A DNA stretch of 64,000 nt from a virus (lineage: Duplodnaviria > Caudoviricetes). The DNA is taken from positions 59,216 through 123,215 of the IMG/VR virus record IMGVR_UViG_3300020577_012633. One strand, 5' to 3'. Below, piece by piece: positions 2,552 to 60,770 of the stretch. The notes under the pieces were generated by a model. That model was given only the letters and a program-made list of their open reading frames with translations. It had not been told where the DNA came from and did no database searches. Made by a program: the position numbers and the translations under genes. Positions within the stretch are counted from its first letter, which is position 1, and every line of letters starts with the position of its first letter.

Positions 2552-3797
2552 GAGATACAGGTCCACCAGTTTTATCATCGAGATCAAAATTGGCGTCTAT
2601 GAAATTTATTACCTCTTGAGGATCAATGCCTTTGTTAAAGACAATATTTGGTCCATGATTGTCAAGATATACTGCATATAGATTGCCAAACTTAGCAAGC
2701 CCATTTGAAGTATTTTGACCGCACTGGTGAGAGCCACATTCGTATTCTCTTTGAGAAACAGTAGGAACAAGATCTCTTGGGTTTTGTTTCAACGGACAAT
2801 GAAAATGTACAATACAATCGCAATCTGGATGTTCTGCAAAAACAATACGTTGAGATTGTCCGCCTACGGAAGGTTTAGCGCCATAAGCAATAACTCTATC
2901 CGGCCCATCAGTCTCAATCTTTACAAGACCATTCTTTTCAATATCATTGAAGTTTGTTTTGCGAATAGAAGTCAAGAAAGTTGTTGGACCAATTTTTGCA
3001 GCAAAATGGCCGACAGTCGCCCCACTAGGACCAACCTTATATGCTCCATTTGCAACACAATAGTCTACAACCGTTCTAAGAACCTCAGGAACAAGATCTG
3101 ACTTCCAAGGAATAGGATCGCCAGCTATGACAGTAGAACGAGTAAAAGTAAGATGAGAACGAAGTTTAGTCATTTCAACAAGACCGCGAAGAGCTGCATC
3201 TCTGTCAAAGGTAACGTGATATCTTGCTTCTTCTGGCGTGATGACCATATTCAATCGCGTCTTTACGTCATTTGCAAGGACAAGGTTACAAGAAGCTTTC
3301 TTGCAAAGATCAAGACCTGCAATATATTGTTCATCTTCTGTTGCGTTACAGGTAGTCTTAAATCCAACAAGGAAAATATCCTTGCGACTATATTTTTCTG
3401 CGCGGAAAAATTTAATCACTTTCTTTTTCATGGATAGATCAATTTTATAACCATTCAAATTCCTTGAATTTAATCTGGTTTCATATTTACCAGGAGAATT
3501 TTCTCCAACCTTTCCTTCATAATCACACATAGCGCAAGAAAAGAAAACAATCTTGACGTTCAAATCAGAGACTATATCCTTTACCCATGCTTCAACATCT
3601 TCATTTGTTTCCATAGCAGAGCCAGGATCTGCCATTTTAGTTAGGCACATTGAGGTAGTCATGCTAGGAATCAATTCTTCGCAAAGAGATTGAAGCTTTC
3701 GTGCTGTTTTACCATAAGCAGGAGCGCACAAAGCTAAATGAGCAGTGACATGAGAAACAGTTCCGCCGCCAAAGATAGCGATTTTCTTGGGGTTCAT
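2529..3797 (-). CDS. CoaB/DFP-like domain fused to class II aldolase/adducin domain
   Basis: GGGT, AMCDY, LVGFKTT, LVLAND in N-half; CIVHFH and LDNHG in C-half. Confidence 0.65.
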   Translation of the reverse strand: MNPKKIAIFGGGTVSHVTAHLALCAPAYGKTARKLQSLCEELIPSMTTSMCLTKMADPGSAMETNEDVEAWVKDIVSDLNVKIVFFSCAMCDYEGKVGENSPGKYETRLNSRNLNGYKIDLSMKKKVIKFFRAEKYSRKDIFLVGFKTTCNATEDEQYIAGLDLCKKASCNLVLANDVKTRLNMVITPEEARYHVTFDRDAALRGLVEMTKLRSHLTFTRSTVIAGDPIPWKSDLVPEVLRTVVDYCVANGAYKVGPSGATVGHFAAKIGPTTFLTSIRKTNFNDIEKNGLVKIETDGPDRVIAYGAKPSVGGQSQRIVFAEHPDCDCIVHFHCPLKQNPRDLVPTVSQREYECGSHQCGQNTSNGLAKFGNLYAVYLDNHGPNIVFNKGIDPQEVINFIDANFDLDDKTGGPVSLSEHSHA

Positions 3798-5306: not shown

Positions 5307-5938
5307 GATATTTATCCAAGTTTCGCAGGATCAAAATTAAACTGTTTTTTGTATTTTACTTTAAGATCCTCGAAAACTTCTTTCGAGATCTGTTCCCATT
5401 CTGATTGCTTAATTCCTTTTACACCTTGAACACTTGAAACAAAATCAGTAGTTCCACTTATCATAAAATCTGAGGGCAAATAAATATTTGCAATAAGCAT
5501 TTTTGTATTATTTTCATCGTTCATGAATCCCATTACATACAAAAGAGCAGGGTTTTGATTTTCTGTATTTTTAAACTTATAAAAACAACCTTCTTTAAAG
5601 TTGTAGACACGAGTAGTTGGATCATCTTTTGTTGGGTCTATATTATCTGTGCCGCAATCTTCGCATGGATAAGACTGAGGATGTCTTTTTTGTACTACAG
5701 TACAATCTTCGTCTCCATACTTACAACCATGAACGATGCAACAATGTTCTGTGTGAACGTCTTTAGCCATTGTTGTTTTTTCTTTTCTGTATAAGTATGC
5801 CAAGAACAGAATCGGCACGGACAGCAAGTATTTTATCATATACCCCTGTTTCTTTATTCCAAACAGGAACATGAAGCATTTTTACCGTCTTAGCCTCGGT
5901 TCTGCAAATAGGACAGATTTTGGTTTCTTGTTTTTCCA

Positions 5939-7516
5939 TTATGCGGAAAATTCGACCAGGTAACGAAGCTGATGCTGATCTCGATCAAAAGTAATGAACT
6001 CGTTGTTCATAACCTGACTTACATTTGCCTTTCCAAAAATACAGTGGTGGCCCTTTGGAGGTTCAGTATAACCGCGAGGACCAGGAGCTACGAAAGGATT
6101 GCCAAGTGCAGTATCAGAGACGAACATGAACGCATGGCGACCAGCAACGGAACCTCCTCCGCCGCCCCAACGAGAATATCCAGAAGTATAGCCAGCGCTC
6201 TTTTTCCAGTCATCAGCCCAATATAGACCGCCTCCGAACATAGCACCAGTAATAACAACGCCAACGAGAGTCTTAGGAAGGCGAAGGTTCTCTCGAAGAA
6301 TACCAGGAACGTTCACAGAGCGAGTTCCGTGGAACATCATAGAAACGTTAGCTTTTTCATAGAAAGGAGCTTCATTCGGGTCAACATCATTGCGAGAATG
6401 AGGTTGGTGCAAAGCTTTTTCTGAAATCTTTGATTTACTGGCAGCGATTTCTTTGATAGCCTTTCGCCATCCATCAACATGAGCAAGCTGACGAACAGCC
6501 CACATGTTATGAATCTTCATTCCTCCAACGTCACTATGACGATTTCGCGTAGCATTAGGCATCCATCCAAGAATAAACTTGCCACGCTCCGATTTAGGAT
6601 CAATATAGGCCATTTCAATGTTGAAACCAGCAAGAGGATCAACATCTTTATCAAGGCCCATGTCAACAGCATATAGAGCAGACTCGAAAGCATCGAGATC
6701 CTGGTCCCATGCAGTAATGTTGTCTTTATTCAAAATCCAGTTAACATCGCCAACTCGCTTTACCTTCGGAATACGAGAGTAAAGATGGTTGGTGAGAGCC
6801 TTAAGCTCTGTATCATTCATCTGGTCTTTTTCATTATCGCCAACTGCTTTGACCCGCTTACGAGCTTCGGTCAAGATTTCTCGACCTTCATCAAGAGATG
6901 CCTGAGTTGGGATATTGCCACCTTGAACAACAGTCTTTGCATAAGCAACAGTACCTACGTTCATATCTCTCATCAATTTGAGAGTCTGCTCGTCCCATTT
7001 TGGCTTTGTATTTACGTTAGCTGTTGAAGTATTTGTAACCTGAGCCGTCTTTTTTGCTCCGTCATTGAAAGCAATCTTTTTTGCATCAGGAAGACCAGTT
7101 GTACGAGTTGCAAGAGGACGAACAAGATAGCAATCCTCTCCAGATTTTGCTTGGAGAACTTTGCGACCAGCAATGGTTGTCCATTCACCTCTTTTATCAT
7201 TCTTGGAATGAAGCTGTTTTTCGTATTCGCGTTGCGCTTCATCTTCACTACCGCATTCAACAAAAGTGAAATCAGCTTTTGTTGCGCCAGTGCGACCCCA
7301 TTCAAAATATGCGAACCAGGAATTGGTTTTTTTACTCTTTACCACTGATCCGTGGTAATATTTGTTTGAATCTTTTCCGTCCTGCGTAAAGCAACCCATG
7401 TCAGCAAGTTTAGTGCCTGAGAAATTGCCGTCTTGGGTAGCGGGAGGACCAAAGCATTCAAAATCATCAACCGTGTGACCTTTAGGAAGCGTGCCTCGAC
7501 CAAGTTTGGTTGCCAT
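5939..7516 (-). CDS. WGR-domain PARP-like ADP-ribosyltransferase
   Basis: EWGRTG (WGR), helical regulatory-like region (LYSRIP), FHGT / GAMFGGGLYWAD / NNEF = H-Y-E triad. Confidence 0.88.
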   Translation of the reverse strand: MATKLGRGTLPKGHTVDDFECFGPPATQDGNFSGTKLADMGCFTQDGKDSNKYYHGSVVKSKKTNSWFAYFEWGRTGATKADFTFVECGSEDEAQREYEKQLHSKNDKRGEWTTIAGRKVLQAKSGEDCYLVRPLATRTTGLPDAKKIAFNDGAKKTAQVTNTSTANVNTKPKWDEQTLKLMRDMNVGTVAYAKTVVQGGNIPTQASLDEGREILTEARKRVKAVGDNEKDQMNDTELKALTNHLYSRIPKVKRVGDVNWILNKDNITAWDQDLDAFESALYAVDMGLDKDVDPLAGFNIEMAYIDPKSERGKFILGWMPNATRNRHSDVGGMKIHNMWAVRQLAHVDGWRKAIKEIAASKSKISEKALHQPHSRNDVDPNEAPFYEKANVSMMFHGTRSVNVPGILRENLRLPKTLVGVVITGAMFGGGLYWADDWKKSAGYTSGYSRWGGGGGSVAGRHAFMFVSDTALGNPFVAPGPRGYTEPPKGHHCIFGKANVSQVMNNEFITFDRDQHQLRYLVEFSA

Positions 7517-19803: not shown

Positions 19804-20610
19804 ATAGGCTAATGCTTTCCTAAAAAAGTCATTTTCAAAGACTCATCTCTTCTACGGATTTTGAGTCTCTTTTCTTGTTTCTTTGTTTTTTTTCGCTTTG
19901 ACAACAGTTTTGTGTCTTATTTGCATTATGTTACTGGATGTTCTACCGCTATGCGATTTAATTATACTTGCAACAAAAGCAAACACAGCCGCTATTATAC
20001 AAGTAAAAAGAATCCAAATAACAATTTTTATCTGGTCTGCGGTCAACCCGTAAGGGTGAAGTTCGGAAAACTTTTCGTTCATTTCATGTAAGTGTATCAA
20101 AGACATTTCCACTTTTTTGATATTTCGTGTCTATTTGAGCATTTACAAACGAATGGGATAGTCAGTAGAAATAAAGTAAGAAATCAGGAAATAAAATACA
20201 AAAAAAACAATACATATAATTATAGCAACTATAATTGATGAAGCAAATAAAAATAAACTAAACATCAAAGTCTTTTCAAGTTCTTCTATGAAGTTTTTCA
20301 TCTAACAATCCTGAGTTTTTTCTCTAATACTTCTATTTTTAGTTTCGATGAAATATTTTTGCCAGCAAAATTCTATATTGACTTAGAATTTGAGCTGACT
20401 GTTCTATTCCCTGGTCTTTTGTTTCCAGTGACGAAAACTCATTCCAATCTTTTCCAGCCAATTCTCCAGCTTTATGATACAAATTGAGCAACAATTCCCT
20501 TTCTTCTGGGCTACCTTGTGATTCTATCCAAGCTTCTTTTCGAGCTTGAATATAAGCACATAAACTTTCGTTGTCTCCATATCCAACATTCATTTATTTC
20601 ACCAAAAAAT

Positions 20611-20838
20611 GAGCAAGAACAACAAGGCCTCATAAATGCCGTTCTGTTTTTATCCTATCATTTCTCTAATGGCCTCAACCCGTCCTCATAGAGCCACCGA
20701 CACTCTCAGACTGTTTGAGTTGCTACTTAGGTTGTTCAATCGACTTTTCAGGTCTCCAACCGTAGGTGGAGTAGCGGCAATTTTCCTCACGTCTTTTTCA
20801 AGATGGTGCGATAGGCCGGGCCTCGTTGTCCTATGCTC
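20611..20838 (-). ncRNA. rnpB: Minimal RNase P RNA
   Basis: CR-I GAGGAAAAUUGCCG and CR-V ACAGAACGGCAUUUAU form P4 with a bulged U; P1, P2 (CCUAUCG/UGAUAGG), P3, P5, P15 and CR-IV AGAGAAAUG present. Confidence 0.85.
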
Positions 20839-21234
20839 GTAAATATCTTAGCGATTTATCGACAAGAAAGCAATCCTTATTGCATTTTTTGTGGTTTTCT
20901 AAAAAATCGGGATTTATCAACATTCAAGTATTGAATTTTCATCTGGTTTTGGTTGCATAGGAAGGTTTTCCGGTTTATAAAAAACACCTATCATAGAATG
21001 ATTAACTAAAAATCTATAATATTTATATTTATCATTAAAGACTGACCAGCAACCAGTTTGATTCAGTTTCAGATTCATAAAAAATACAATATCTTTTTCG
21101 TTACTGGAAATGTTATAAGAAGAACCTCCAAATAATAAATCATTATAAAGACTATTAGCTTTACCTCCAACTACTATTTGGTTATAATTAGAATCTGAAT
21201 TTCCGCCATTCAAAATAAAGTTTTCCATTTTATA

Positions 21235-21867: not shown

Positions 21868-22234
21868 ACTACATATTACTGTAGTATTAATTATTCATCC
21901 TTCTTGCGAAAAGAAAAATTTGGTTTCCATCCATTTTTAAAAGCTCTAATTCAAATTTTAGTATTTCCCTATGGCAATTTACACCATTTTCAACAATATC
22001 TCCGTAAACCATCATACTTCGCAATGGATCTTGTGCATGTTCAGATTTAAGTTCTTTTCTTATTCTTTCTTTTATATGTTCAGGAAGTTGATTATAAAAT
22101 TTTCCTGGTTTTCTTTGTGGATCTAAAATATTTCTTTTGATAGATGAAAGATATCCAAATTTTACTTCACCATCATTTCGTGCTTGTTCGCAAATATCTA
22201 AAAACAAAGATTGTATGCTTATTTCCATATTAAT

Positions 22235-23323
22235 TTATATTCCCAATTTATTCGTCTCTCCAGAATTTCCAAAGAACCAATGTTCATTTGCTGTAACGTG
22301 TCCTTTTCTAACAAATTTTGCTATAGACCTTGAAAAATCTTTATAATGAAAACTATCGGCCAACCGAACAACGTATCCCTCACAGTCCTCACCATTTATT
22401 ACTGGTTTATAAAGTTCTTTAATCGTTTTTTCATTCCATATTCCTCTATAAATAATCGGTACTATTGGAATGCCAAGAAGTTGAAACCATTCGTTAGTTG
22501 TATCCCAATCAAGACAAATTAGATTGTTCCAAGCTGAAATCCCATAGCAATAACTTTCCAAATTCTTATATGGAATGGAATGTTTTGCATAAAGATTTTC
22601 TACAACAAATCTCATGTTCTCAGGAATATCATGACAAATATTCCCGTGAAAATTCTTTATCCAACTTTTTGACCAGTGTTTCTTATCTGCTAAAGAACGA
22701 GCATGAATATAGTCATTATACATTGTTGTATTTTCACCATCCATCTTGATGGTTACTACAACCTCTTTGCCATTAAATATGTCTATATTCTTTATAATGC
22801 GATCATCGTCAGTAGCTCCAGGAGACCAAGGCAAATGCCAAGTTCTTGGATACTTTACATAACGACTAAATAAATTAAGTACATTGCCTTCGTTCAATAC
22901 TTTTTGAACAGAAATATCATCAAAAAGCTCGCCTCTGAGTCTTGTCCCATTGGGCATAATAGGATTAGCCCATTTATCATACACTTGATCATCGTAAAGA
23001 TGTTCTGGTATAATCTTATCTTTTTCTAGGATTCCGCAAGCTGCTCTAATCTCTTCAACACATAAAATTGTCATTTCAGCTTTGATATGACATTCAGGGC
23101 AAAGGCTAGAGCCGTTGTTGATTAGATATCCACCGAAAGTTTCCGGGTCTATCCATAGTCGTCTTTCTAAGATATGATGAGCATCGAGATTCGTCTTAGT
23201 TGATGTCTTAAGACAAATAACGCATTTGTGATCATCACGAGCAAAAACCTTCTCTCTAAATTCGTTTCTAGAAAGAATTTTCCGTGACCGATTTACATAG
23301 TTGTTTGAATTTGACTTCATCAA
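22235..23323 (-). CDS. HNH domain fused to ATP-dependent RNA ligase (start uncertain)
   Basis: CVIC..AHHI..LCPECH; KYPRTWHLPWS, KMDGEN, EGYVVR, AKFVR. Confidence 0.85.
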   Translation of the reverse strand: MMKSNSNNYVNRSRKILSRNEFREKVFARDDHKCVICLKTSTKTNLDAHHILERRLWIDPETFGGYLINNGSSLCPECHIKAEMTILCVEEIRAACGILEKDKIIPEHLYDDQVYDKWANPIMPNGTRLRGELFDDISVQKVLNEGNVLNLFSRYVKYPRTWHLPWSPGATDDDRIIKNIDIFNGKEVVVTIKMDGENTTMYNDYIHARSLADKKHWSKSWIKNFHGNICHDIPENMRFVVENLYAKHSIPYKNLESYCYGISAWNNLICLDWDTTNEWFQLLGIPIVPIIYRGIWNEKTIKELYKPVINGEDCEGYVVRLADSFHYKDFSRSIAKFVRKGHVTANEHWFFGNSGETNKLGI

Positions 23324-40612: not shown

Positions 40613-40740
40613 TGGACGAGAAGGAATTGAACCTTCAATCTTTGATCGGCGGACCTGCAAAGGTTGTCTAGTTTTCACCAGACTGCGAAGTGAGAGCGGC
40701 AGGTTCCTAATTCAATGTTCTACCTTTGAACTAATCGTCC
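40613..40740 (-). ncRNA. tRNA-like RNA with the anticodon arm replaced by a large structured domain
   Basis: GGACGA/TCGTCC acceptor, D arm GTTC-AAAGGTA-GAAC, T arm GAAGG-TTCAATT-CCTTC. Confidence 0.7.
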
Positions 40741-45523: not shown

Positions 45524-45611
45524 CGGATGATGCAGGATTCGAACCTGCGTAGGCTTTAGACCTCTCTTGTTTTCGAAACAAGTGCATTAAACCAGACTCT
45601 GCCAATCATCC
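45524..45611 (-). tRNA. tRNA-Ser(CGA)
   Basis: CTTGT-TTCGAAA-ACAAG, long variable arm. Confidence 0.92.
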
Positions 45612-46262
45612 CAATCATAAACCATGTTTTTTGAAGGTTTCAATATCTTGTTTTAGATTTGTCGCCATCATTGTCAAATATATAAGTATTTGACCTTGAG
45701 AACAGGAAGCCCAACCTTTATTTTCAAAATCCAAATAAAACTTGTTTTCTTCTATGTATCTGTGTATTTCTTTTTCTACCTGTAATAGCAAAATAGATAG
45801 ATTTGTAGAAAGTTTATCCATGCATTAACTTGGCATGAATAATTGTATTTATCCTCTATAATTCCTACTCAAATTCTCCAGCAGAAAAAGACCAATCATC
45901 CTCGTCTTTCCATTCCATTTTCCTGCTAACTCTTTCTTCCCAACCTGGATATTTTCTTAAACAATAATCAAAGTGGTTCAATTCTTCATTTTTAGTATTT
46001 TCAACAATCAGGAAAAACTCTTCAACTGAAAACGTTTTCTCGTATTCATCTATTATAGGCCTTTCCATTCCACTATTTTCAATTTCTCTCTTCCAGTCCT
46101 CCCAAGAAATAATATGAGGGATATTATCGACAAGCCCATGAAAAGAGAATTTCCAGCCAGAAGATCTTTTACCTATGTGAATCTTTTCGTGTCTATTACA
46201 AGATTCACATTTGTTTTTTATCAAATAATAGTTAGTACCCATGAATACATCCTTATTTAAGC

Positions 46263-47825
46263 TTATACCAAAACTCTAGCTTCATTCATGGCATCTTTAA
46301 TTTTCGCCTCTTCACCAGCCGCCATAAACTTGGCCAATTTTATTCCCCATCCGGTAAGCTGCGAAGTTGCCCATTCAGACGCTTTATTTACGCAATTGCG
46401 AGGACCATAGGACTGAACAACCTTACCTTGATTGTTGATCATAATAGAAGCTTTTTCGCCATTATAATCAACATGGAACAGGAAACATTCGCCTTTAATG
46501 GCAGTCCTTGAATAACTTGCTATACAATGTCCCATATCAACGCCTTCAGCGATAATCTCTTCAACCGTTTTTAGAAAACGTATATTTTCATTTTCTGGCA
46601 AATCAATAGGAGGCATTTTTGCAGGCATAAGCTTTTCAGCCTCCTGCTCAGCAAGTCTTTCTGCTTCTCTTATAGCATACTCAGCCGCTCTTTGAGGAGC
46701 AAGCCTTACATATTCCTCTTCTCTTCTTATTGCTTCAATGCGTAACAATTCATAACGAGCCTGTCTTATTAAATCTGCATCCTGATGCCAGCGATGAGAC
46801 TTCTCAAGAAGTCCAATTATCTCTCCTTCATGCTTTTGATCGTAATCACAAACATAATTTACAAAGTATTGAATACCTTTATGTCCTCTAAGAGTAAAAG
46901 AGCATGACTTATGCTTTTTTATATAACTTTTCCTGAATAGCTTGAATGCCTTACGAATCTGTTCAGGACTAGATCTCATAAAACAATCAACATGATTTAT
47001 TTTGTCTGGTTGCCAAGAGTTATGCTCATTAGCCATAATTACAGCCATAATTTTAATTCTGTCAAATATAGGCTCACTGAGATGAATTTTATTAAGTTTC
47101 TTGGCAAGATTTACAGGAATGCCACGAGGCCAATTATCCAAAGTCTTATTAAGTGCTTTGTATGTTTTAGGAATGTCTGAAAAAAGAAGACGCCAATTGT
47201 CAGCTTTTCTTTCTACTCTGGCATAATCACCTTCAAACTGGAAAACAATTTTATCTCCATCAAAAATAGATTTATCTAAACAAAGATGAATAGCATTATA
47301 AGTAAGAAGATCGTTTATAAAAGCTTTATTGCTAAAGATCTTAGATTCCATAAGAATACGAGGAACTAAGGCCTTTGGGCCTCTTGTAACAAAGAACTTC
47401 TTATGAATAGAAGAAACTTCTGGTTGAACGTTTTCCAACATACTCTTCCATGCTGGATAAAGGTAATAACCAAGACCCTTTGTGAATTTAGCCTTGGCCC
47501 ATTCTTTAAGCTTTTTACCAGGCAAACATTTAAATTGCGTTTTTCCTTGAGCCGCTAACTTATCAGATCTAATCTGTATCCAGTTAAACATAATCTCATC
47601 TATCATCTTCTCTTTCAAGAGAGGATAGTTCATAATGGAAATAAGATCGCTATGGTGACGAACACCGTTGCGATGAAATTCTATTTCAATGTTATTATCT
47701 ATCTTGATTTTAGCATCAAGAAGACCTTCTCTCTTGATATTACAACCAGTATCTGTTTTCTCTACATTATAGAGAACTGGTTTAGTTGCATCAAAAACGA
47801 AGGTTTTAACTATTTTCTCTGGCAT
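46263..47825 (-). CDS. Large protein with C-terminal PcfJ-like domain
   Basis: IAEG.DMGHCIASY, VQSYGPRN. Confidence 0.65.
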   Translation of the reverse strand: MPEKIVKTFVFDATKPVLYNVEKTDTGCNIKREGLLDAKIKIDNNIEIEFHRNGVRHHSDLISIMNYPLLKEKMIDEIMFNWIQIRSDKLAAQGKTQFKCLPGKKLKEWAKAKFTKGLGYYLYPAWKSMLENVQPEVSSIHKKFFVTRGPKALVPRILMESKIFSNKAFINDLLTYNAIHLCLDKSIFDGDKIVFQFEGDYARVERKADNWRLLFSDIPKTYKALNKTLDNWPRGIPVNLAKKLNKIHLSEPIFDRIKIMAVIMANEHNSWQPDKINHVDCFMRSSPEQIRKAFKLFRKSYIKKHKSCSFTLRGHKGIQYFVNYVCDYDQKHEGEIIGLLEKSHRWHQDADLIRQARYELLRIEAIRREEEYVRLAPQRAAEYAIREAERLAEQEAEKLMPAKMPPIDLPENENIRFLKTVEEIIAEGVDMGHCIASYSRTAIKGECFLFHVDYNGEKASIMINNQGKVVQSYGPRNCVNKASEWATSQLTGWGIKLAKFMAAGEEAKIKDAMNEARVLV

Positions 47826-47840
47826 GTCTGTTACCTCTAA

Positions 47841-47922
47841 AGCCACCGACAGGACTTGAACCTGCAATATCTTTCGATGCCACTTTACAAAAGTGGTCCC
47901 TTGCCATTCGGGTCACAGTGGC
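47841..47922 (-). tRNA. tRNA-Thr(TGT) with long variable arm
   Basis: CCACT-TTTGTAA-AGTGG; variable arm ATC-GAAA-GAT. Confidence 0.85.
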
Positions 47923-49193
47923 GTATTGTTATTATTTTCCTAACAATGCAATTCTTATATTTTCGACTATTCCTGAAAGTTTCCTTTCATCTTCTTTGTG
48001 AGATTGATCACAAAATTCATAACCCATAAGCCCATTCTGCTGCATTCCTCCTATAACAGAAAAAGCTTCATTTACTAAATGATGAACAAGAGCCATTTGT
48101 TGTCCCGTAAAATCAAATTCAGGATTATTAGGATTCCCAGCTCCCATAAAGATTTGATCATCAAACAATATTTTGTCAGCTATGCTTTCAAGAGAATATC
48201 CGCTTCTATCAATAGCTATTTCGAGAACTGATTTCATATAGCAACCTTAGAACAATTCGCCTTTGACTGAATCATTGCACTTTCCAGTTCATTTGCGAGC
48301 TTACGAAGATTATCAGGATTTAAAGATATTCCTATAAGATTAAACTCAGCAGAATTTCTATATGATTGCAAAGTAAGTTTTTGATTGGTATAAATTCCAG
48401 TTTTAGGACCATTTCCATTATCAAAAAATTCTGTTTCAAGAAAAAGAGATTCTTCGCGATCATCATTTGGATTGAAAACGAAAACGTGTTTACCAACATT
48501 TTTGTCTCTATTTGCCATTGCCAATCCTTTACTTAAACAAGAACCTGTGTTTATTCAACCATTCTGCTTCAAGACTAATCTCATCTTCATCATCTTCTAT
48601 TTCTTCATCATCGTCACAATTTTTATCTATTATATCTTGGTCATCACAGCAAGGACCGCACCAAAGAATACCATTCCCGTAATAGTCATTAAGTTCATCT
48701 ATTGAAAAGCCACTTGTTCCGCATTTCTTACATTTCATCTTTATCCTCCTGTTTCTTTGATATATGAATATTTTTTGAGAAAAGAGAAAGCATTCCGCCA
48801 TTAAAGCTTATATAATAATCTTTCTTAAGAATATCAAGAAAAACTTTGGCGTTTGCGTCTTTTATTAATTTTTTCAAATTAGAACAAAAACTTAGAAAAT
48901 CTTTGTCATTTGGCAATAACATAATCATATCCAATAAGAAATTTCTTCTGGAACCATTATTTCTTTATTTTGTTTTGTAGCTTTTTGGGAACTTCCACCA
49001 TATCGGTTTTTTATAAACCGATCTTCTTGAAGACAATAAACAAAATCAGCAGTAGCTAGTTTGTGAGAACTAAGCTTTAGTGATTCTTTGACAGAATCGC
49101 AAACTATGGCAATGGCTTCTTTCATAGTCTTTAATCGTCAATCAAAGACTATATGCTCAAGAAATACACCAAGGAATTTATTTTATGTGCAAA

Positions 49194-49286
49194 CGGTTGA
49201 GGTTGGTATCGAAACCAACTAATCCAATAATCTTTGTTCGTCGGCCTATTTACATAGACATAGATTTGAAGAAAGATTTCTCAACC
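49194..49286 (-). ncRNA. tRNA-like RNA (acceptor + T arm only) with Y-RNA-like motif
   Basis: GGTTGAG/CTCAACC, GTTGG-TTTCGATA-CCAAC, internal GGCCGA-N8-GATTATTG. Confidence 0.6.
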
Positions 49287-49290
49287 AAAA

Positions 49291-49412
49291 TCGCTTCGGA
49301 CGGGATTCGAACCCGCCAACCTCTTCATTATGAGTGATAACCGTCAACAATCGACCTATTCGGTATGTTGGAGTCAACGGGCTTTAGCGCTCTACCATTG
49401 AGCTACGAAGCG
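49291..49412 (-). tRNA. tRNA-Met(CAT) with 48-nt Y-RNA-like insert in the anticodon stem
   Basis: CGCTTCG/CGAAGCG, D arm, CT[insert]TCA-CTCATAA-TGAAG, T arm. Confidence 0.75.
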
Positions 49413-49416
49413 AAAA

Positions 49417-49487
49417 TTGCTAGGAAGGAGTCGAACCTTCATCTCCAAGTTAAAAGCCTGGAATGTTACCAATTACAACACTAGCTA
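49417..49487 (-). tRNA. Atypical tRNA-Lys(TTT)-like
   Basis: TCCAGG-CTTTTAA-CTTGGA and T arm; imperfect acceptor, no clear 8-9 linker. Confidence 0.55.
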
Positions 49488-49642
49488 GCTGTCTTTCCAG
49501 CAGTCCAACCTCGTTTATTGTCATCATTTCAAGCCCATCGGGCTTGTGATTTACTTTAGGAGTATGGTTTATTCCTATCCTCGTTTTGCTCTTGCCAGAG
49601 ACTTATAGGAGTTTGGACTATTCCTTTGGCAATCAAGTTTGT

Positions 49643-50410
49643 TTAATTCGCAAATAATTCCTTCACTTGCAAAGCTGTAGATCGAACACTTCTGAACAGA
49701 TTCAACTGAGGCTCAATAATGTCATAATACAGATCATCAAGCTTATCCTTTTCAACATCCTCAGGGATAGAACTCTTCTCAAGTTCAATTGGCACTTGAG
49801 CATCCAGTTCTTCATAACGAGCTTTTACAACTTCAACAGGAATCTCTCCATGACGAACCTGACGAAGAAAATCCGCGTTAGGCCTAGGAAAAGTAATCGT
49901 GCCTGTCTGTAGAAGCTCAATACACTCTTCAAGCAATCTTACTGCATGGTAAGCATTCTTAATACTGTAACCATAAGCAACAATATGCTCTTTACGTTGC
50001 GCTCCAAGTTTTCTCATTTGCTCGAAATAATCTACAGCCTTTTTCCACTCTCCAAAAGCAAAACCCTGCATTGGCTTAATAAGCTTTTTAGAAACAAATA
50101 GATGTTTATTATCAATTAGTTTCTGACCAGCTTCAGTAATTTCAAGAATATGTTCTTTCGGCGCAAAAAGAATTTCTGCCGTATTAGGACTGAAACGTTC
50201 AAGCAAGTTAAAAAACTTAGGAAAAGACCATATTACTGTATCTGGATCTTTACTTTCATACTGATCCCAGTGACGACGGCCAAGAAGATATTCAGCATAA
50301 GGCACCGCAAAACCGCGAGTATCAATGTCGCTTGTTGGCGTGCTACATCCATAAAGATGAGAACCAGTTCTGACTAGCAAGTCTGGTCTCTTATAAAAAT
50401 CAGCTATCAT
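49643..50410 (-). CDS. Pol-beta superfamily nucleotidyltransferase (RlaP/YcgL-like)
   Basis: GSHLYG..TPTSDIDTRG, PN..EIL, HAVRLL. Confidence 0.85.
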   Translation of the reverse strand: MIADFYKRPDLLVRTGSHLYGCSTPTSDIDTRGFAVPYAEYLLGRRHWDQYESKDPDTVIWSFPKFFNLLERFSPNTAEILFAPKEHILEITEAGQKLIDNKHLFVSKKLIKPMQGFAFGEWKKAVDYFEQMRKLGAQRKEHIVAYGYSIKNAYHAVRLLEECIELLQTGTITFPRPNADFLRQVRHGEIPVEVVKARYEELDAQVPIELEKSSIPEDVEKDKLDDLYYDIIEPQLNLFRSVRSTALQVKELFAN

Positions 50411-50502
50411 AACTTGGTCCTCCTTTCTTCTATGAAATCAACTATTTGAACTTTTGGTTTATCAAATATTCTAAGCAATCTTGTAATAACTCGCAAAAAA
50501 AG

Positions 50503-51071
50503 TCAAGGTGACAGGATTCGAACCTGCGGACTCGTGGACCCTACCATATAAAATCATTAGCCCATTTAATATTCTTTTTTTGCCCGTTTTTAGGCTTTTC
50601 AATTCTCACGCATAACATTCTTTTATTTTCAAATTGTTCTGGCCCAAAACACAGGATTTTATCTATTTTTGGAACATAAACAAGAACTAAATCAATATCT
50701 TTTGAAGAATAAGTATCATGTTTATATTTAGTAAGAGCTGTTTTTCTTGCCATTTCAATTCTAACAGAACCTTCACTATCTTTAGATACTTTCCCGTCTC
50801 CATATTTACATTGAATCTTTAGTATTTTGCCATTATTTTCAATAAGTAAATCGTACACTGATTCTGTTGTGGGTATTGATACTATGAAATCTTTTTCCAT
50901 AGCTCTTTGTTGTATCTTAAGCACTGCTAACTGACCTTTATTATTTGTATTCATTTAAATTCCTATATTAGTATTAGAACCTTGTGGTATAGTTACATAG
51001 GGTTATTGAATATCCTTCTTATACAAATAAAATTACTAACCACGCACTCTACCAAGCTGAGCTACACCCTG
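50503..51071 (-). tRNA. Split tRNA-Pro (reconstructed AGG); halves 51036-51071 and 50503-50543
   Basis: Halves join to CGTGG-TTAGGGT-CCACG; TAG duplicated at the junctions. Confidence 0.8.
50541..50954 (-). CDS. PD-(D/E)XK endonuclease (I-Ssp6803I-like family)
   Basis: KGQLA, VSIP...YDLLIE..KIQCKY, IDLVLVY. Confidence 0.8.
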   Translation of the reverse strand: MNTNNKGQLAVLKIQQRAMEKDFIVSIPTTESVYDLLIENNGKILKIQCKYGDGKVSKDSEGSVRIEMARKTALTKYKHDTYSSKDIDLVLVYVPKIDKILCFGPEQFENKRMLCVRIEKPKNGQKKNIKWANDFIW

Positions 51072-51594
51072 AAAACTTAAGCCTCACTCATACCAATTAA
51101 CATGTAACTTTTTCAATCTCGCAAGCTGTATGATAGTCCTTATCAATAGCTGATTCAATCTCATCCATTTTTTTCAAATAACATTCTATAAGATCAGGAT
51201 CTTCTAGACCATCAACAATATTAGACAAAGAAATCATTTCATCAAGACCTGCTACAGTCTTAAGGATATATTCTTTTTGCAACTGAATAAGCTTTATTTT
51301 CTTTTCGTTATTTTGATTAGTGCTACTCATGTAACATTAATCGTCTTATTTTTTACGAGATTTTAGGCTATCACGCCATTTATCGCTTGTATGATATTGC
51401 CACAAATTACATTTTTTACACTTATAGCCATGTTCATATATCTTTTTCTTTAAATTCAAAATACTAACTAAAGGGTGCAATGCACATTTAACATAAGTCA
51501 TTGTTTTTTTACAATTAGCACACTTTACTAATGTATTTTCATCTACATCTATTACTCGATATAGATTATTCTTTTTACGGATAGATCCCATAAG

Positions 51595-51668
51595 TCAGAA
51601 TAACAGGATTTGAACCTGTAGCCTTCTCGTCCCGAACGAGATGCTCTACCAAATTGAGCTACATTCTG
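51595..51668 (-). tRNA. tRNA-Pro(CGG)
   Basis: TCTCG-TTCGGGA-CGAGA. Confidence 0.9.
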
Positions 51669-51675
51669 AATTTAT

Positions 51676-51981
51676 TTATGAAGAAACTTTTTGAATGGCT
51701 TCTTTTATTTTGGCCTCAGTCTGAAGACCAACTAGCTTTTCAGCAAAAACTCCATCTTTGAAAATTACAATAGAAGGAATAGATGTTACATTATACGTTT
51801 TTGCAAGATCTGTATTTTCTTCAACATTCGCTTTCAAAAAGGTAACATTTGATATTTCTTTAGAAAGCTTTGTTAGAAGAGGCATAAGCATTTTACATGG
51901 CATGCACCAATCTGCCCAAAAATCAACAACAACTATAGGATAGTCTGAAGGTTCAAATTTAGATTCTATTATTTCTTTCAT
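51676..51981 (-). CDS. trxA: Thioredoxin
   Basis: DFWADWCMPC, SIP. Confidence 0.9.
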   Translation of the reverse strand: MKEIIESKFEPSDYPIVVVDFWADWCMPCKMLMPLLTKLSKEISNVTFLKANVEENTDLAKTYNVTSIPSIVIFKDGVFAEKLVGLQTEAKIKEAIQKVSS

Positions 51982-52006
51982 TTTTTACTCACAATAACGA
52001 ACAAAG

Positions 52007-52081
52007 TCAGGGAGACAGGATTCGAACCTGCGACTTCTTGGACCCAAACCAAGCGCTCTAGCCAAGCTGAGCTACACCCTG
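52007..52081 (-). tRNA. tRNA-Pro(TGG)
   Basis: CTTGG-TTTGGGT-CCAAG. Confidence 0.93.
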
Positions 52082-52161
52082 AAAGCCCGTCCTTGATTCT
52101 GGTCACTCTTTCGAGGAGAGCAGAGACGGGAAGTCAGCACGCGTGCTGACATTATATGTTG

Positions 52162-52288
52162 CTGACAAATATAGGGCCGTATCTAGGAGTTTCAGAATAC
52201 TGGAAGCCATTGCTGGATAGTCTCTTTATCTGAGTCATAAAGACCACTTCTACGCATAATGTTAACCTAGAAAACATCGACTTGTCAG
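52162..52288 (-). ncRNA. Y-RNA-like ncRNA
   Basis: CTGACAAGT/ATTTGTCAG closing stem, GTCGA-N9-GGTTAACA. Confidence 0.65.
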
Positions 52289-52304
52289 TGACTACTAAAA
52301 CTAA

Positions 52305-52435
52305 AGACAAATATGTTGTTGCATTTAGCGATCTCAGAAACTGTACCTCATTCCGAGGCTAGGTCATCTCTGATGAACAACCTACTGAACGAACTTCTCC
52401 TATTAGTATGTTAAGCTAAACGCTCCGACTTGTCT
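52305..52435 (-). ncRNA. Y-RNA-like ncRNA
   Basis: AGACAAGT/ATTTGTCT closing stem, GTCGG-N8-GCTTAACA; GTCGATA motif just upstream. Confidence 0.65.
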
Positions 52436-52647
52436 AATAAAGTATCGACATTTCTATAAAGAAATCTCGAACTACACGCTTTTCAACCTTGGGCCGCTAC
52501 AACATTTCCTTTATCATCATATATCAAAACTTTACCATTTTGATCCACTCCAAAAACTCTTTTCCCTTTTGGAGCTTTTAAATCTGTTTCATATTTTTTA
52601 GTCTTATTATTGAACTTTACATTAACTTGTTTGGCTTTTTTCATAAG

Positions 52648-52720
52648 TGGAGACTACGGGAGTCGAACCCGTGACCTTTTGCATGCCATGCAAACGCTCT
52701 GCCAACTGAGCTAAATCCCC
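52648..52720 (-). tRNA. tRNA-Ala(GGC)
   Basis: TTTGC-ATGGCAT-GCAAA; G3.U70. Confidence 0.93.
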
Positions 52721-52744
52721 AAAAAGGAGGGATAAAACCCTCCT
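52721..52744 (-). terminator. Intrinsic terminator after the RF gene
   Basis: AGGAGGG/CCCTCCT hairpin followed by TTTT. Confidence 0.7.
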
Positions 52745-52749
52745 ACTAT

Positions 52750-53500
52750 TTACTTCAATATGATATCAAGATTTCCCTTTATAACATCTTTGATATCATA
52801 TGTTTTCTTGCCTGTCAAATGATCAGAAACATAGCCCTTATAGAAACAATAAGTTCTTCTAGCTCCGCCTCTTCCTGTATTGCTGAGAATGTTTTTACGC
52901 TTTTCAGCATAATCCTTATTTTGTTCAGCAAACTTCATTTCTTGAATACGTCCGCACAGAAGCTCATAAGCATGAGCTTTATTCTGCTGAGGAGAACGAT
53001 GAACCTGAGACTTAACAAAGATTCCTGTTGGAATATGTTTCATTCTACATGCACTCTTGCATGTATTAACTCCTTGACCACCTGGTCCTGAAGCATTTTG
53101 AAACATAATCTCAATGTCTTCGTCTCTAATAATCGCTCCTTTGAAAGCAAATATTGGCAAGATTCCAACTGTTACAGTTGAAGTATGACGACGACCGCTT
53201 CTTTCGGAAGGAGGACATCTTTGAACAACATGCTTGCCTGATTCATTTTCAAAAGCAGATAATACATTTTTACCGCTTATTTCAAGAGTAGAAGAACCGT
53301 AATCAACATCAACAATCGAAATGGTTAGGTTCTTCTTTGTTGCGTATCTAACATATATTTCGGAGAGTTCGTGAACAAAGTTTTTAGCATCTTCTCCACC
53401 CTCTCCTGCTCTTATTTCAATAAGAATAGAAGAAGGGTCAAAGAGACTCCTGTGCCTTATGCTGAAGGCCATCGTTCCAGCGATTTCTGTTACTATTCAT
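52750..53500 (-). CDS. Class I peptide release factor homolog (lacks domain 1) with a predicted +1 programmed frameshift
   Basis: EIRAGEGG, GRRHTS, GPGGQ; AGGAG-TCT-CTT-TGA-C at 53451-53437 in frame with ATG 53500. Confidence 0.85.
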
Positions 53501-54107
53501 AGCAAAACCCTTTCAATTAAAAGTCCACTGGCTTCTTGCAAAAATAACAAGACTACGGTTCGCTTGCCGCTGCGCTACATCGTTGTTTTCATATTGAAAA
53601 CATTAGGTTCTTTAATTGGATGAATGCTGGCGACATCCCCACTCCACTGAACTGTTCCAATACAAAATAAATGGAACTTAGGCTCTCCATTAACTTCTTT
53701 TTCTACTGTCCTGGCTTTTGCATGTATATGAACTTCAGAAGCTAAATGCTCAATATCATTTATGACAACTCTCCATTTGCGACCTTCTGGATCATTTTGC
53801 CATTTGGTATTGAATCTCAAAAGTATATTATCATATTCTATCATGGTAATTCATTTTTTGCTTCTACTTCAATTTCTCTTGAAGAATAACATTCTGATAT
53901 TAATCGAAAATGTTGTATTTTTGGGCCACCAAGACCTTCATATGTTGCAATACGCAGTCCTTTAGTATTATATCCACGAGGAATTCTACAAACAACATTA
54001 TCTTTTGGACCAAAAGGATCTGAATCTTTTTCTATAGACCAACAAAAATCTCCAGCTAAAAGAAGTATTCCATCTTTTGTTATAGGAAGAGACTTTTTCA
54101 TAGTAAA

Positions 54108-54178
54108 CTGACCTACTAGGATTCGAACCTAGGCAACAGACTCCAAAGGACTGCGTGCTACCGTTACACCATAGGTCA
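54108..54178 (-). tRNA. tRNA-Gln(TTG)
   Basis: Loop CTTTGGA, cloverleaf. Confidence 0.9.
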
Positions 54179-54376
54179 ATATAATTATCTTCTTTTGGAA
54201 GACTTTATAGCAAGAAGTGCTTCTTGCATTTTTCTCTTAAGTCTAGCTTGTCTTTTACGATGCCTTTTTGCTGTATTCTTTTGCTTACTTGTCATTTCTT
54301 GCCTTTCTGATTAATTTCTGCGCCAGAAATATAATCATCGTATACATATGATGTAAAATTCAACCATTCACCAAAA

Positions 54377-54447
54377 TAGCCCGACAAGGATTTGAACCTA
54401 GACTAATTGAATCAGAATCAACTGTGCTACCGTTACACTATCAGGCT
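54377..54447 (-). tRNA. tRNA-Gln(CTG)
   Basis: GTTGA-TTCTGAT-TCAAT. Confidence 0.88.
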
Positions 54448-54733
54448 AAAACTTTCCAAACCATTCTTTTACGCTGCCGTCATTCCTGTCGTCTTCATCT
54501 TCTTGCGACATTCTTTCAAACTCTTTTTCTTGATTCTTGTATGCTTCATCATTGAATATTTTCATCATTCTTATGGCATGAGCGTATTTAGAACAAGATT
54601 CTTTATGACCAAAAGCAGGCTCTTCGCTATTATTACAAGTCATTTCTTTGCATTCATCGCATCGAATCTTCCATTGACTCATAACAGCAAAATATGCCTG
54701 CTTCTTTTCTTTATCAGAAATCTCTTCCATAAG

Positions 54734-54807
54734 TGGACCTGACGAGCATCGAACTCGCTTCCTCAACGTTGCGAACGTTGCGCTCTACCCAACTGAGCTT
54801 CAGGCCC
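54734..54807 (-). tRNA. tRNA-Ala(CGC)
   Basis: CAACG-TTCGCAA-CGTTG; G3.U70. Confidence 0.9.
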
Positions 54808-54811
54808 AAAA

Positions 54812-54872
54812 ACCAGTATGTTTGTGAAATAAGGGGTACGTTACAAGTGATAACCTTATTTCTTCGACTGGT
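54812..54872 (-). ncRNA. Minimal Y-RNA-like hairpin
   Basis: ACCAGT-CGAA-GAAATAAGG...CCTTATTTC-ACAAACAT-ACTGGT. Confidence 0.65.
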
Positions 54873-55081
54873 ATTTATTTCAACGACGGTGATGATAGTA
54901 AGAATGAGAATGATAGTAGTACGGAGCTGGTTGCACAAAAATTACAGTTCTTGGAGGTGGGCAATAATATGGCCCACTATCAACAACATAAGTTGTACAA
55001 CCTGTTAAACTCAAACCACAAACTGCTAACAAAAGAAAACAAACTAGTTTTTTCATATCTTCCCCCAAATATACTCTAAAG

Positions 55082-55154
55082 TGGAGCCTGCGAGATTCGA
55101 ACTCGCCGCCTATTGCTTGCAAAGCAATCGCTCTACCAAATGAGCTAAGACCCC
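55082..55154 (-). tRNA. tRNA-Ala(TGC)
   Basis: ATTGC-TTTGCAA-GCAAT. Confidence 0.92.
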
Positions 55155-55172
55155 AATAATCTATCAAACAAT

Positions 55173-55541
55173 TTATTTCTTATTTGATTCTCTTTCTTCC
55201 CAATGTAATTTTTTATGACAATTTGAACACAGAACGTCACACTTTTTCATTTCTTGTTTTATTCTTTTTAGAGAATAACCGTTTTTAATAGCCCAACTTA
55301 TTTCAAAGTCCTTTTCTGCTGAGTCTCTATGATGAAATTCTAGACAAGCTACATGACATTCGGAGCATTTTGCGCAACCATTTATTGTCTTAAATCTATT
55401 TATATATTCGTATCCAATTTTCATGTACTTATCTCTAAGAATAGATGAATTCTTGATATGCTTTTTCTTGTTTTTCTTATACCATTCTTTTTGATATTTC
55501 TTCTGGTAGGCTTTATGGTCTTCAATGTTTTTGTATGGCAT
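55173..55541 (-). CDS. Free-standing HNH endonuclease between tRNAs
   Basis: CAKC, LEFHH, CDVLCSNCHKKLH. Confidence 0.85.
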   Translation of the reverse strand: MPYKNIEDHKAYQKKYQKEWYKKNKKKHIKNSSILRDKYMKIGYEYINRFKTINGCAKCSECHVACLEFHHRDSAEKDFEISWAIKNGYSLKRIKQEMKKCDVLCSNCHKKLHWEERESNKK

Positions 55542-55596
55542 AATTTATATGTCCATATAGGACTTTTGAGTTTATAACTTCAATTTTACTTTCAAA

Positions 55597-55669
55597 TGCG
55601 TTCGGAGGGAGTCGAACCCTCAACTTCGGGCTTAAAAGGCCCTTACTCTGCCAATTGAGTTACAAACGC
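55597..55669 (-). tRNA. tRNA-Lys(TTT)
   Basis: Loop CTTTTAA, cloverleaf. Confidence 0.9.
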
Positions 55670-55742
55670 TATCTTTTACCATCATCGTCAGTCTGTTTTC
55701 GACATTTCATTGCAACACCATTCCTTTTTATATAAACACAAA

Positions 55743-55814
55743 AGCGGCTTCAGGGATCGAACCTAACTTGGGAGATAATGACTCTCCCCAGACCACCAAG
55801 GCCTAGCCAACCGC
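55743..55814 (-). ncRNA. Atypical tRNA-like RNA (6-bp D stem, loop GTCATTA)
   Basis: GCGGTT/AGCCGC, TAGGCC/GGTCTG, GGAGA/TCTCC, GGTTCGATCC. Confidence 0.55.
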
Positions 55815-56095
55815 ATCTTAATCATCTGATTGATCAAACTCAGAATCATCAGATATGTCAAAAGCTCTTGTATAATTTATTCCAATAAATTTAGAAACAT
55901 CCTCTAAGATTTCATCTATTTCTATATGCTCATTACCTTCATTACCGTGATATTCACCAGAAGCTACCTCAAAAAGCATATGCATTTTAGAAATCATTTC
56001 TTGTAAAATCTTTGATACATCCTGAAGACTTGGATCTTCATTATATTTGATATTATTTTTTAATAAATCAATAGCTTCTTGTGGTTTTATCATAA

Positions 56096-56170
56096 AGCTC
56101 CCGGTGGGACTTGAACCCACACACTTCAGTTTTGCAGACTGAGCCATTTGTCCAATTCTGGTACAGGAGC
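56096..56170 (-). tRNA. tRNA-Cys(GCA)
   Basis: TCAGT-CTGCAAA-ACTGA; U73. Confidence 0.9.
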
Positions 56171-56571
56171 AATTCTAAACTAACACCATTTATTCTTATT
56201 CTTATGAAGGGCATTTCTTTTGTTATTTATAAAACTTCGCGCCTTTTTTATTGCAACTTCTTCTGGAAGATTTTGTAGTTTCTTTATTTCTTCTAAGCTT
56301 TTCTTAACTTTATTTGGATCGGTTGAAAGATTTGCAATATATCCAATAACAACAGCAAGCGTTATTCCATTACCTTTAGCATGAGGGCTTGCCCAATCCC
56401 AAATCTTGTCAAAAATTCTCTGTTGAAAAGCAATAGCTTTCCAATTGATTTTAACTTTACAATTATTTTTCTTTCTAAGCAAACGAATTTCTTTTATTTG
56501 TTTAGAAAGAACCTTTTGTTGTTTGAGAAGTTCTTCCAATCGTTTCGATATTTCATCTTGCTCATTCATAA

Positions 56572-56642
56572 AGACCAGATCAGGAATCGAACCTGCGATA
56601 TCAGTTTTGCAGACTGAACCCTTACCACTCAGGCATCCGGCC
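56572..56642 (-). tRNA. tRNA-Cys(GCA)
   Basis: TCAGT-CTGCAAA-ACTGA; U73. Confidence 0.9.
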
Positions 56643-56645
56643 AAT

Positions 56646-56790
56646 AGCTAGTATATTTAATTGGTCTGGGGTTAGCTCTCTAATCTTTCGACTTTGAGAG
56701 GTGCCTTACCGTTAGGCTACCCCGCCATATTTTCAAAAGGCGGGGATAAGATTTGAACTTATAATGTTAACCCATTCCATTCGACTAGCT
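56646..56790 (-). ncRNA. YrlA-like Y RNA (circularly permuted tRNA mimic)
   Basis: Order: stem with GTCGAATG, T arm, closed acceptor CCCCGCC/GGCGGGG, D arm, 3' stem. Confidence 0.8.
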
Positions 56791-56825
56791 GAATTTAGTT
56801 ATCGGCTTTTCAGCCAAAACTAACT

Positions 56826-57143
56826 CTATTTCACTCTTTTATTCCAAGCCTTCACAGCATCTCTTACTAACCAAGCTTCCCAAGGTTCTTTTTTAGAACC
56901 ATTCTTACTATTAGTTACTACGACCTTAGCAGGACATTTTGTACAGAAAGCTTTGACTACTTTATATGAGTCTGTAAAGACTTCGCCGGAATCCCATGAG
57001 CTGTGCCAATTCCTTTCATAATCAAGCTTAATATCAGGTTCTTTGTTGCCGCAAAATGGACAAGGTTTAAGATTACGATGAACTACAGTAAACTTTTGCG
57101 TTCCAACCTTGCTAGTATCAAGATATTCTATATTAGTTTTCAT
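56826..57143 (-). CDS. Lar-like (restriction alleviation) zinc-ribbon protein
   Basis: LKPCPFCG..CTKC..AWNKR. Confidence 0.7.
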   Translation of the reverse strand: MKTNIEYLDTSKVGTQKFTVVHRNLKPCPFCGNKEPDIKLDYERNWHSSWDSGEVFTDSYKVVKAFCTKCPAKVVVTNSKNGSKKEPWEAWLVRDAVKAWNKRVK

Positions 57144-57604
57144 AAACTCAATATATCCCAAGCAGCAGATGCAGCTATAGGACGACTCTTATAAGTACAT
57201 TGACCCGTATTTTCATTTTCAGCCCACCACCAATAGCAGCCAGCTTCGATTTTATGTAAAAGTCTCCAGCCATGAAGTTGTAAAGTGGACCAACAAGAAG
57301 GAAACAAGTCTTCCCTTATTACATCAATCGTTTCAGCTTGAATAATCATTTCTCATCACCATAATCAATTAATTTGCCTTTTTCTATCGTATAGCGGCAG
57401 TTCTCGTTTTGATAACCAAAAACTTTATCAAGTATTTTCTTTTCTTTAAGAGTTATTTCGCCTACATGAAAAAGACCAAAAATATATCCTTGACAAAAAT
57501 CCATAGTTGATTCATGTCCAAGAGCTAATCTATCTGTAATGTTTTTCAACTTTGTTGCATTTTTGTCAATATTCTTTTCGCTTTTATTCATTATTTTTGA
57601 CATA

Positions 57605-58252: not shown

Positions 58253-58255
58253 AAG

Positions 58256-60687: not shown

Positions 60688-60770
60688 ATTCTTTTATCGC
60701 CAAAAAAAGAATATTACTCTGCAATCCACAAGCTTCCTCCCGGAATCGAACCGAGTTATCTGAGATACGA

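Follow-up and report, generated by a model that had tools for sequence, protein, structure and literature searches.

Whether a phage can carry an RNase P RNA of its own is the question raised by an ORF-free gap of 323 nt in a 64,000-nt stretch of viral DNA (hereafter the window). The source record, a 123-kb virus contig in IMG/VR, is estimated to be 24% complete, and the carrier is a huge uncultured phage. The gap lies between the minus-strand ORFs 20339-20593 and 20917-21228 and has a GC content of 0.45-0.46, vs. 0.23-0.37 in the flanks. A sequence-only reading had placed a phage-borne, strongly reduced RNase P RNA here, and the coordinates and strand that it gave were right. The 228-nt gene occupies 20611-20838 of the minus strand and is read from 20838 downwards (RNA position i is window position 20839-i). 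Both RNA ends coincide exactly with the two ends of an interrupted 17-bp helix, P1.

The RNA contains the complete catalytic-domain (C-domain) set of a type A RNase P RNA: P1, P2, P3, CR-I, P4, P5, P6, P15/L15, P16, P17, CR-IV, and CR-V, all on the minus strand. The hand-assigned pairs of the window copy are canonical without exception (68/68). P1 is formed by a 5′ strand at 20819-20838 (RNA 1-20) and its partner at 20611-20629 (RNA 210-228), which make 17 canonical pairs in four blocks. P2 consists of 6 bp between CCUAUC (20810-20815; RNA 24-29) and GAUAGG (20654-20659; RNA 180-185). The P3 hairpin, CAC-CA-UCUU-GAAA-AAGA-C-GUG (20788-20808; RNA 31-51), is capped by GAAA. CR-I (GAGGAAAA) and the 5′ strand of P4 (AAA, the bulged U, and UGCCG) occupy 20775-20788. 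P4 is a pseudoknot in which AAA (56-58), bulged U59 (window position 20780), and UGCCG (60-64) face CGGCA (198-202) and UUU (203-205), exactly the compensated helix described in the earlier reading. It is flanked by GAGGAAAA on one side and ACAGAA of CR-V on the other. J2/4 and CR-V (AUAAAAACAGAA, 20642-20653) lead into the 3′ strand of P4 (CGGCAUUU, 20634-20641), the two together spanning 20634-20653. P5 pairs CUACU (20770-20774; RNA 65-69) with AGUAG (20723-20727), and the P6 pseudoknot pairs CCACC (20765-20769; RNA 70-74) with GGUGG in the P17 loop (20694-20698). The stretch at 20674-20723, assigned by pairing and family covariation, holds J5/15 (GCAA), P15 (CUC/GAG), L15 (AAACAG on the 5′ side and GGGUU, including the GGU motif, on the 3′ side), P16 (GUCU/GGAC), and P17 (AGAG/CUCU). 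CR-IV (UAGAGAAAUGA, 20658-20668) runs into the 3′ strand of P2, GAUAGG. The core bases that are universally conserved in RNase P RNA are thus kept: GAGGAA, the bulged U, the J5/15 adenosines, ACAGAA, and the GGU of L15. The single-sequence MFE fold is only slightly more stable than those of shuffled sequences (z -2.35), misses the pseudoknots, and is uninformative when taken alone.

The specificity domain (S-domain) is reduced to a stub. It had been put at about 45 nt; the reduction is real, and the remnant is shorter, at 37 nt (RNA 75-111), with P8-P14 and CR-II/CR-III missing. Its body is a 32-nt stem-loop (20730-20761; RNA 78-109), in which a P7-like 5-bp helix (GGUUG/CAACC) encloses an internal loop (AG / CGAUUGAA) and a 3-bp hairpin. 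The absence of P18, also proposed earlier, is borne out by the 5 nt that separate the 3′ strand of P15 from CR-IV (UAGAGAAAUGA).

The closest known system is the bacterial type A RNA (E. coli M1/rnpB, RF00010). The order and pairing of P1-P6 and P15-P17 are the same in both, as are the P4 pseudoknot with its bulged U, the P6 pseudoknot into L17, and a P2 of 6 bp. CR-I (GAGGAAA), CR-IV (AGA..AAUGA), CR-V (ACAGAA), the J5/15 adenosines, and the GGU of L15 are shared, and so are the P1-P2-P3 stack and the placement of the 3′ strand of P2 directly after CR-IV. The differences lie in size, 228 nt vs. about 330-400 nt for type A (377 nt for E. coli M1), and in the replacement of P8-P14, including CR-II/CR-III, by the 37-nt stem-loop, with P18 gone. 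In P4, an A-U pair stands where E. coli has G68-C358, and the distal sequence differs. The phage RNA is also virus-encoded and falls below every Rfam threshold.

The sequence-only reading had expected RNase P models to find the RNA by cmsearch. With Rfam 15, in which the gathering threshold of RF00010 is 100 bits, no RNase P match was obtained over the window at gathering, and the RNase P models gave none on 20400-21050 even at E<=10. The type T model RF02357 likewise gave no match at E<=10 on 20400-21050. Matches of other models on the element (mir-2542, PsrR1, snoR71, and others) had E values of 3-8 and were rejected as noise. The expectation did hold in part for homologues in other phages. 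One of them, L019, matches RF00010 over the whole model at 44.1 bits (E 1e-10 to 1e-12), with P15-P17, CR-I, CR-IV, and CR-V lined up as expected, and another, L024, matches RF00373 at 47.2 bits; both are sub-threshold. None of the seven longer phage versions reaches the gathering threshold of RF00010, and the phage genes are therefore unannotated. The lack of a model hit had been named as one half of what would refute the earlier reading, and with Rfam that half came about. The failure of Rfam on the window RNA is a limit of the Rfam models. Nucleotide searches fare no better: blastn of the element against GenBank phages returned only short pieces, in LR756501/03 and LR756511, and blastn with two other family members returned no match. 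Sequence search alone cannot trace the phage family.

The homologues were collected by pattern. A CR-IV/J2/4 pattern search of IMG/VR gave 21 loci, of which 18 show the full arrangement; the other three (L010, L012, and L013) were rejected as chance matches in coding sequence. In each of the 18, the P2 3′ strand finds its exact complement upstream, where P2 would have it, and by eye P1, P2, P4, P5, P6, P15, P16, and P17 vary with compensation between members. The length of P3 varies among the relatives and reaches about 100 nt in L004. Between P15 and CR-IV, where the window RNA has no hairpin, L001 and L014-L016 have additional ones with GAAA loops. A MAFFT alignment of 12 members placed P2 off by 4 nt in four rows, and a second alignment misaligned L005 and L006. 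The covariance model, R1, was therefore built from six well-aligned rows, and the sequences were then realigned. The window RNA was excluded from these six phage members, and the nested helices of R1 were assigned by hand and checked. P4 and P6 were omitted from the model because they are pseudoknots.

R1 matches the window RNA over its full length (model positions 1-258) at 152.9 bits (E~1e-40), and it finds a single copy in the 123-kb record. A relaxed form of the pattern gave 81 viral loci, 63 of them new. Among these 63, R1 has 49 matches at E<=0.001, 205-383 nt in length, many of them on contigs of 100-488 kb. Besides the window, R1 finds about 45 viral contigs, as well as the published huge phages LR756501 (735 kb) and LR756511 (595 kb). 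The family also reaches a cultured phage, Stenotrophomonas phage DLP6 (KU682439.2), where R1 matches 105761-106033 at 113.8 bits (E 2.5e-30), in a gap without annotation that separates a CDS from a tRNA-Arg gene. Since DLP6 carries a copy, the family can be tested at the bench. When R1 was run on bacterial and archaeal loci found with the same pattern, a sample biased by that pattern, it gave E values of 1e-9 to 1e-17. The five best bacterial loci are RF00010 genes by Rfam at the same coordinates (191-243 bits). Recognition between the phage model and bona fide rnpB is thus mutual. Its bases and pairing mark the window RNA as a miniature RNase P RNA descended from bacterial type A.

Much of the ancestral molecule is gone and Rfam is blind to what is left, as would also be the case if a captured host rnpB were decaying by deletion into a non-functional relic. 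We therefore looked at covariation in 49 distinct phage sequences aligned to R1 (2524 cells, 55 pairs). Standard pairs fill 94.2% of the cells, vs. 60.7% in column shuffles, none of 500 of which reaches the observed value. When the partners are slid by 1-3 columns, 29-43% of the cells are paired. Both sides have changed in 50 of the 55 pairs, and the covariation score is 0.767 vs. 0.19. All nine modeled pairs of P1 and all four of P3 covary. P2 is paired in 99.0% of its cells (double changes in 5/6 pairs), P5 in 99.0% (4/4), and helices 9-11, which are P15-P17, in 97.3%, 96.9%, and 88.2%, with every pair doubly changed. The two stub helices, 7 and 8, are paired in 94.6% and 98.5% of their cells and also show double changes. 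The alignment leans to the nested helices, to which it was fitted. P4 (95.9% paired, double changes in 6/8 pairs) and P6 (93.8%, 5/5) lie outside the R1 structure and are unfitted. The covariation of P4, to which attention had been drawn as a feature of this phage, is thus real, but it is not special to it; compensated variation of P4 is found family-wide.

Among bases that the search pattern does not force, GAGGAA is conserved in 48-49 of the 49 sequences, the bulged U and the J5/15 AA in all 49, and G160 and U161 of L15 in 48 and 41, respectively. The conservation of CR-IV and of CR-V (AAACAGRA) is partly forced by the search patterns. Within the stub loop, A84 (45/49), G98 (43/49), and A104 (45/49) are kept, and this conserved internal loop may provide a residual substrate contact or a tertiary contact. 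The family is under strong structural selection in at least 45 viral contigs. We regard it as highly probable that the window RNA is homologous to RNase P RNA and is selected for. Compensatory changes are found in every helix of 49 divergent sequences from many habitats, the pairs of the window copy are intact throughout, and the same modules have been deleted family-wide. A decaying relic is excluded by the covariation, and we give this explanation next to no weight.

As the sequence-only reading had noted, a T-tract is present, and this U6 tract (20604-20609, minus strand) lies directly 3′ of P1. A terminator scan called no hairpin terminator beside the RNA; the U6 tract escaped the call because its "loop" would be the whole RNA. 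The promoter motif of its own that had been ascribed to the gene did not hold up. A consensus scan found no sigma-70-like promoter upstream on the minus strand, and the best candidate by eye agrees at about 7 of 12 positions. In three relatives, L014, L015, and L016, a Bacteroidetes-type -7 box, TAnnTTTG, was seen by eye a few bases 5′ of P1 (TAACTTTG, TAACTTTG, and TATATTTG, respectively). It hints at Bacteroidota hosts and a promoter of the gene's own in those relatives, and it is absent upstream of the window RNA. The sequencing runs that contain the stretch are DNA runs, some labelled riverine metagenome, with no RNA run among them.

We next consider the protein partner, RnpA. A search of the 123-kb record with PF00825 (RnpA) gave no match, and the small ORFs near the gene (20339-20593, 20917-21228, 21887-22228, and others) carry no signature of RnpA or another RNase P protein. 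No RnpA was found in LR756501, in LR756511, or in five complete or near-complete carrier genomes. Two other carriers do encode an RnpA-like ORF that matches Pfam Ribonuclease_P. One (L208:1498-1797, minus strand) is on IMGVR_UViG_3300032236_002285, the 476-kb contig that also holds the RNA locus L040, and the RNA of L040 resembles the window RNA. The other (L215:1501-1794, plus strand) is on IMGVR_UViG_3300033075_001536, the 170-kb contig of L085. Both proteins are about 98 aa long and score about 50 bits vs. a cut-off of 22.3. They share 36% identity with each other, and both contain an RNR-motif stretch. The ORF on the L040 contig adjoins a ClpP-like phage head maturation protease and has no rpmH or yidC context. 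An origin of this ORF in host flanking sequence was rejected on these two grounds, with some doubt left by the label "provirus" that the contig bears in IMG/VR. From their gene content, these two carriers may encode a complete phage RNase P, RNA plus RnpA. Most carriers lack an RnpA of their own, and the host would have to supply the protein partner there.

A rival reading is that of a decoy or regulator. A catalytically idle RNA might titrate host RnpA or compete with M1 RNA, and host tRNA maturation would then be redirected or shut down. In type A RNAs, RnpA binds P2-P3, J2/4, CR-IV/V, and P15. These regions are kept in the phage RNA, and most carriers have no RnpA of their own, as a decoy or regulator of this kind would have it. 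A decoy has no need for the chemistry, but the bases that serve it (the bulged U, GAGGAA, the J5/15 adenosines, and the GGU of L15) are conserved in 48-49 of 49 sequences. Large tRNA sets call for processing and not for inhibition, and two carriers add their own RnpA. We hold inhibition of the host enzyme to be quite improbable.

Precedents for catalysis by a C-domain come from nature and from the laboratory. In archaeal type T RNAs (Thermoproteaceae, Pyrobaculum; RF02357), the catalytic domain is kept and most of the S-domain is lost, and these RNAs escaped the standard models until a dedicated model was built (PMC3579882). The phage RNA is likewise a natural RNase P RNA that retains its catalytic domain, has lost most of its S-domain, and is not seen by standard models. 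In type T the C-domain is archaeal, P2 has 3 bp, P15 is shortened, and 2 nt link P5 to P15 (PMC3579882), whereas the phage RNA has a 6-bp P2, the linker GCAA, and bacterial P6, P15-P17, and L15 GGU, and is not matched by RF02357. The loss of the S-domain in the two is convergent and does not reflect shared ancestry. The isolated C-domain of the E. coli RNA (Eco CP RPR; Mao et al. 2018) cleaves, with an efficiency that depends on a P6-like pairing, and P18 becomes dispensable in it once the S-domain, which holds its docking partner P8, has been removed (PMC5839562). The phage RNA is also C-domain-only, with a covarying P6 and without P18; P6 is kept and P18 dropped as the E. coli C-domain data predict. 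Eco CP RPR is a laboratory truncation of reduced efficiency, whereas the phage RNA comes from a natural gene under selection and has a conserved stub in place of the S-domain. The RNAs of CPR bacteria and of Mycoplasma fermentans are without P12, P13, P14, and P18 and score below the Rfam noise cut-offs (Lui et al. 2021, PMC8172020). Unlike the phage RNA, these are cellular, single essential copies, and they retain more of the S-domain.

The covarying P6, the absence of P18, the stub in place of the S-domain, and the C-domain and type T precedents are the reasons for reading the phage RNA as an active RNase P RNA. We consider it likely, on comparative grounds, that it is a streamlined ribozyme that acts, most probably together with RnpA, in maturing the precursors of phage tRNAs and tmRNA. 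The transcript would fold into the catalytic core and cut the 5′ leaders off these precursors. It would probably do so as a holoenzyme with host RnpA, or with a phage RnpA encoded in genome regions that the record does not cover (two relatives have such a gene). With a stub alone, the normal contacts to the T-loop and D-loop would be impossible. The substrate would instead be bound by the contacts of the C-domain to the acceptor stem, the -1 base, and the 3′-CCA (the last with L15), together with contacts between the protein and the leader. By analogy, this binding mode would be that of engineered C-domain-only ribozymes and of archaeal type T. The benefit to the phage would be additional or host-independent capacity for tRNA maturation while its large tRNA set is being expressed.

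The candidate substrates are close at hand. By Rfam, the window holds 22 tRNA genes and a tmRNA (21-23 tRNAs overall, one with a CUA anticodon), and family members elsewhere sit inside or beside tRNA arrays, several directly abutting tRNA genes. The 22 tRNAs are ordinary cloverleaves that score 43-68 bits on RF00005, vs. a gathering score of 29. A 128-nt match at 40613-40740 (minus strand; RF00005, 43 bits), unreported by ARAGORN, is the only one with a long insert; it probably represents a tRNA gene interrupted by such an insert or by an intron. CCA is encoded by none of the 22 tRNA genes, and the conserved GGU of L15 is therefore without an encoded partner until CCA is added. Either CCA addition would have to come first, or the L15 contact would have to be less important.

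This tRNA set bears on a further proposal. Without an S-domain that reads the T-loop, the ribozyme could be specialized for atypical tRNA-like or non-tRNA phage RNAs that the host enzyme handles poorly, for example intron-bearing tRNAs, tmRNA, or mRNA leaders. The S-domain is indeed a stub, the window contains a tmRNA and the tRNA with a long insert (40613-40740), and some relatives have group I introns and Y-RNA-like matches next to the gene. The tRNAs in the window (43-68 bits on RF00005) and beside the relatives are canonical, however, and the internal loop of the stub is itself conserved and may retain some recognition role. No observation links the RNA to atypical substrates. The sequence-only reading had linked the S-domain loss to many non-canonical tRNA-like RNAs in this phage, a link that finds no support in 22 canonical tRNAs with one long insert. 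Loss of the S-domain is also a family-wide trait of phages with canonical tRNA arrays, and no observation here requires the idea. Specialization for atypical substrates is unlikely, and we retain maturation of ordinary phage tRNA and tmRNA precursors as the preferred role.

To our knowledge, all RNase P RNAs described so far come from cells or organelles. A full-text literature search, with most subscription journals outside its scope, returned no report of a viral or phage RNase P RNA. The huge-phage paper makes no mention of RNase P (PMC7162821), and a search of megaphages with all Rfam models found only tRNAs and a tmRNA (PMC8172020). A virus-borne variant of a known ribozyme that is devoid of the S-domain is new, and the family was not found in Rfam. 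We find it reasonably probable that a working bacterial RNase P ribozyme, reduced by nature to its catalytic domain, is present in large phages of many lineages, in a few of them as RNA plus RnpA. If this is true, RNase P is also a virus-encoded enzyme, phages have their own step of tRNA 5′-maturation, and the specificity domain is lost time and again in evolution where substrates and partners permit. An active ribozyme would extend the set of translation functions that phages carry (tRNAs, tmRNA, synthetases, and RNA ligase) and would serve as a natural experiment on how far a bacterial RNase P RNA can be cut down. With a covariance model of its own, the gene could be annotated in hundreds of large phage genomes in which current pipelines overlook it.

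Several further features of the window and of the relatives were noted. An RNA ligase (22235-23323, minus strand; phrog_24030, E 3e-125) is encoded 1.4 kb upstream of the RNase P RNA, with HNH-like matches within its N-terminal 90 residues. TyrRS and an NAD-dependent DNA ligase are also encoded in the window. The RNA ligase, TyrRS, and tmRNA around the RNase P RNA have the appearance of a tRNA repair/translation island. At 45524-63821 (minus strand), the motif YTTATG stands right after the discriminator base of many tRNA genes, and its ATG suggests small ORFs that would start at tRNA 3′ ends. Among the relatives, L014 has a group I intron (5812-6025, plus strand; RF00028, 64 bits, above gathering) in the tRNA array by its RNase P RNA, and L024 has a Y-RNA-like YrlA match (3688-3790, plus strand; 40.7 bits, below gathering) beside its copy. 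R1 also matches 264-270 nt of two small contigs binned as Aenigmatarchaeota or "uncultured archaeon" (L099:5464-5733 and L164:7702-7965, both plus strand). These contigs are phage DNA in the wrong bin or else carry reduced RNase P RNAs of DPANN-associated elements. In L055, a complete phage genome of 488 kb, two differing copies of the mini RNase P RNA lie about 300 nt apart on the minus strand, at 1867-2078 and 2359-2632, with R1 scores of 75.7 and 134.7 bits, respectively.
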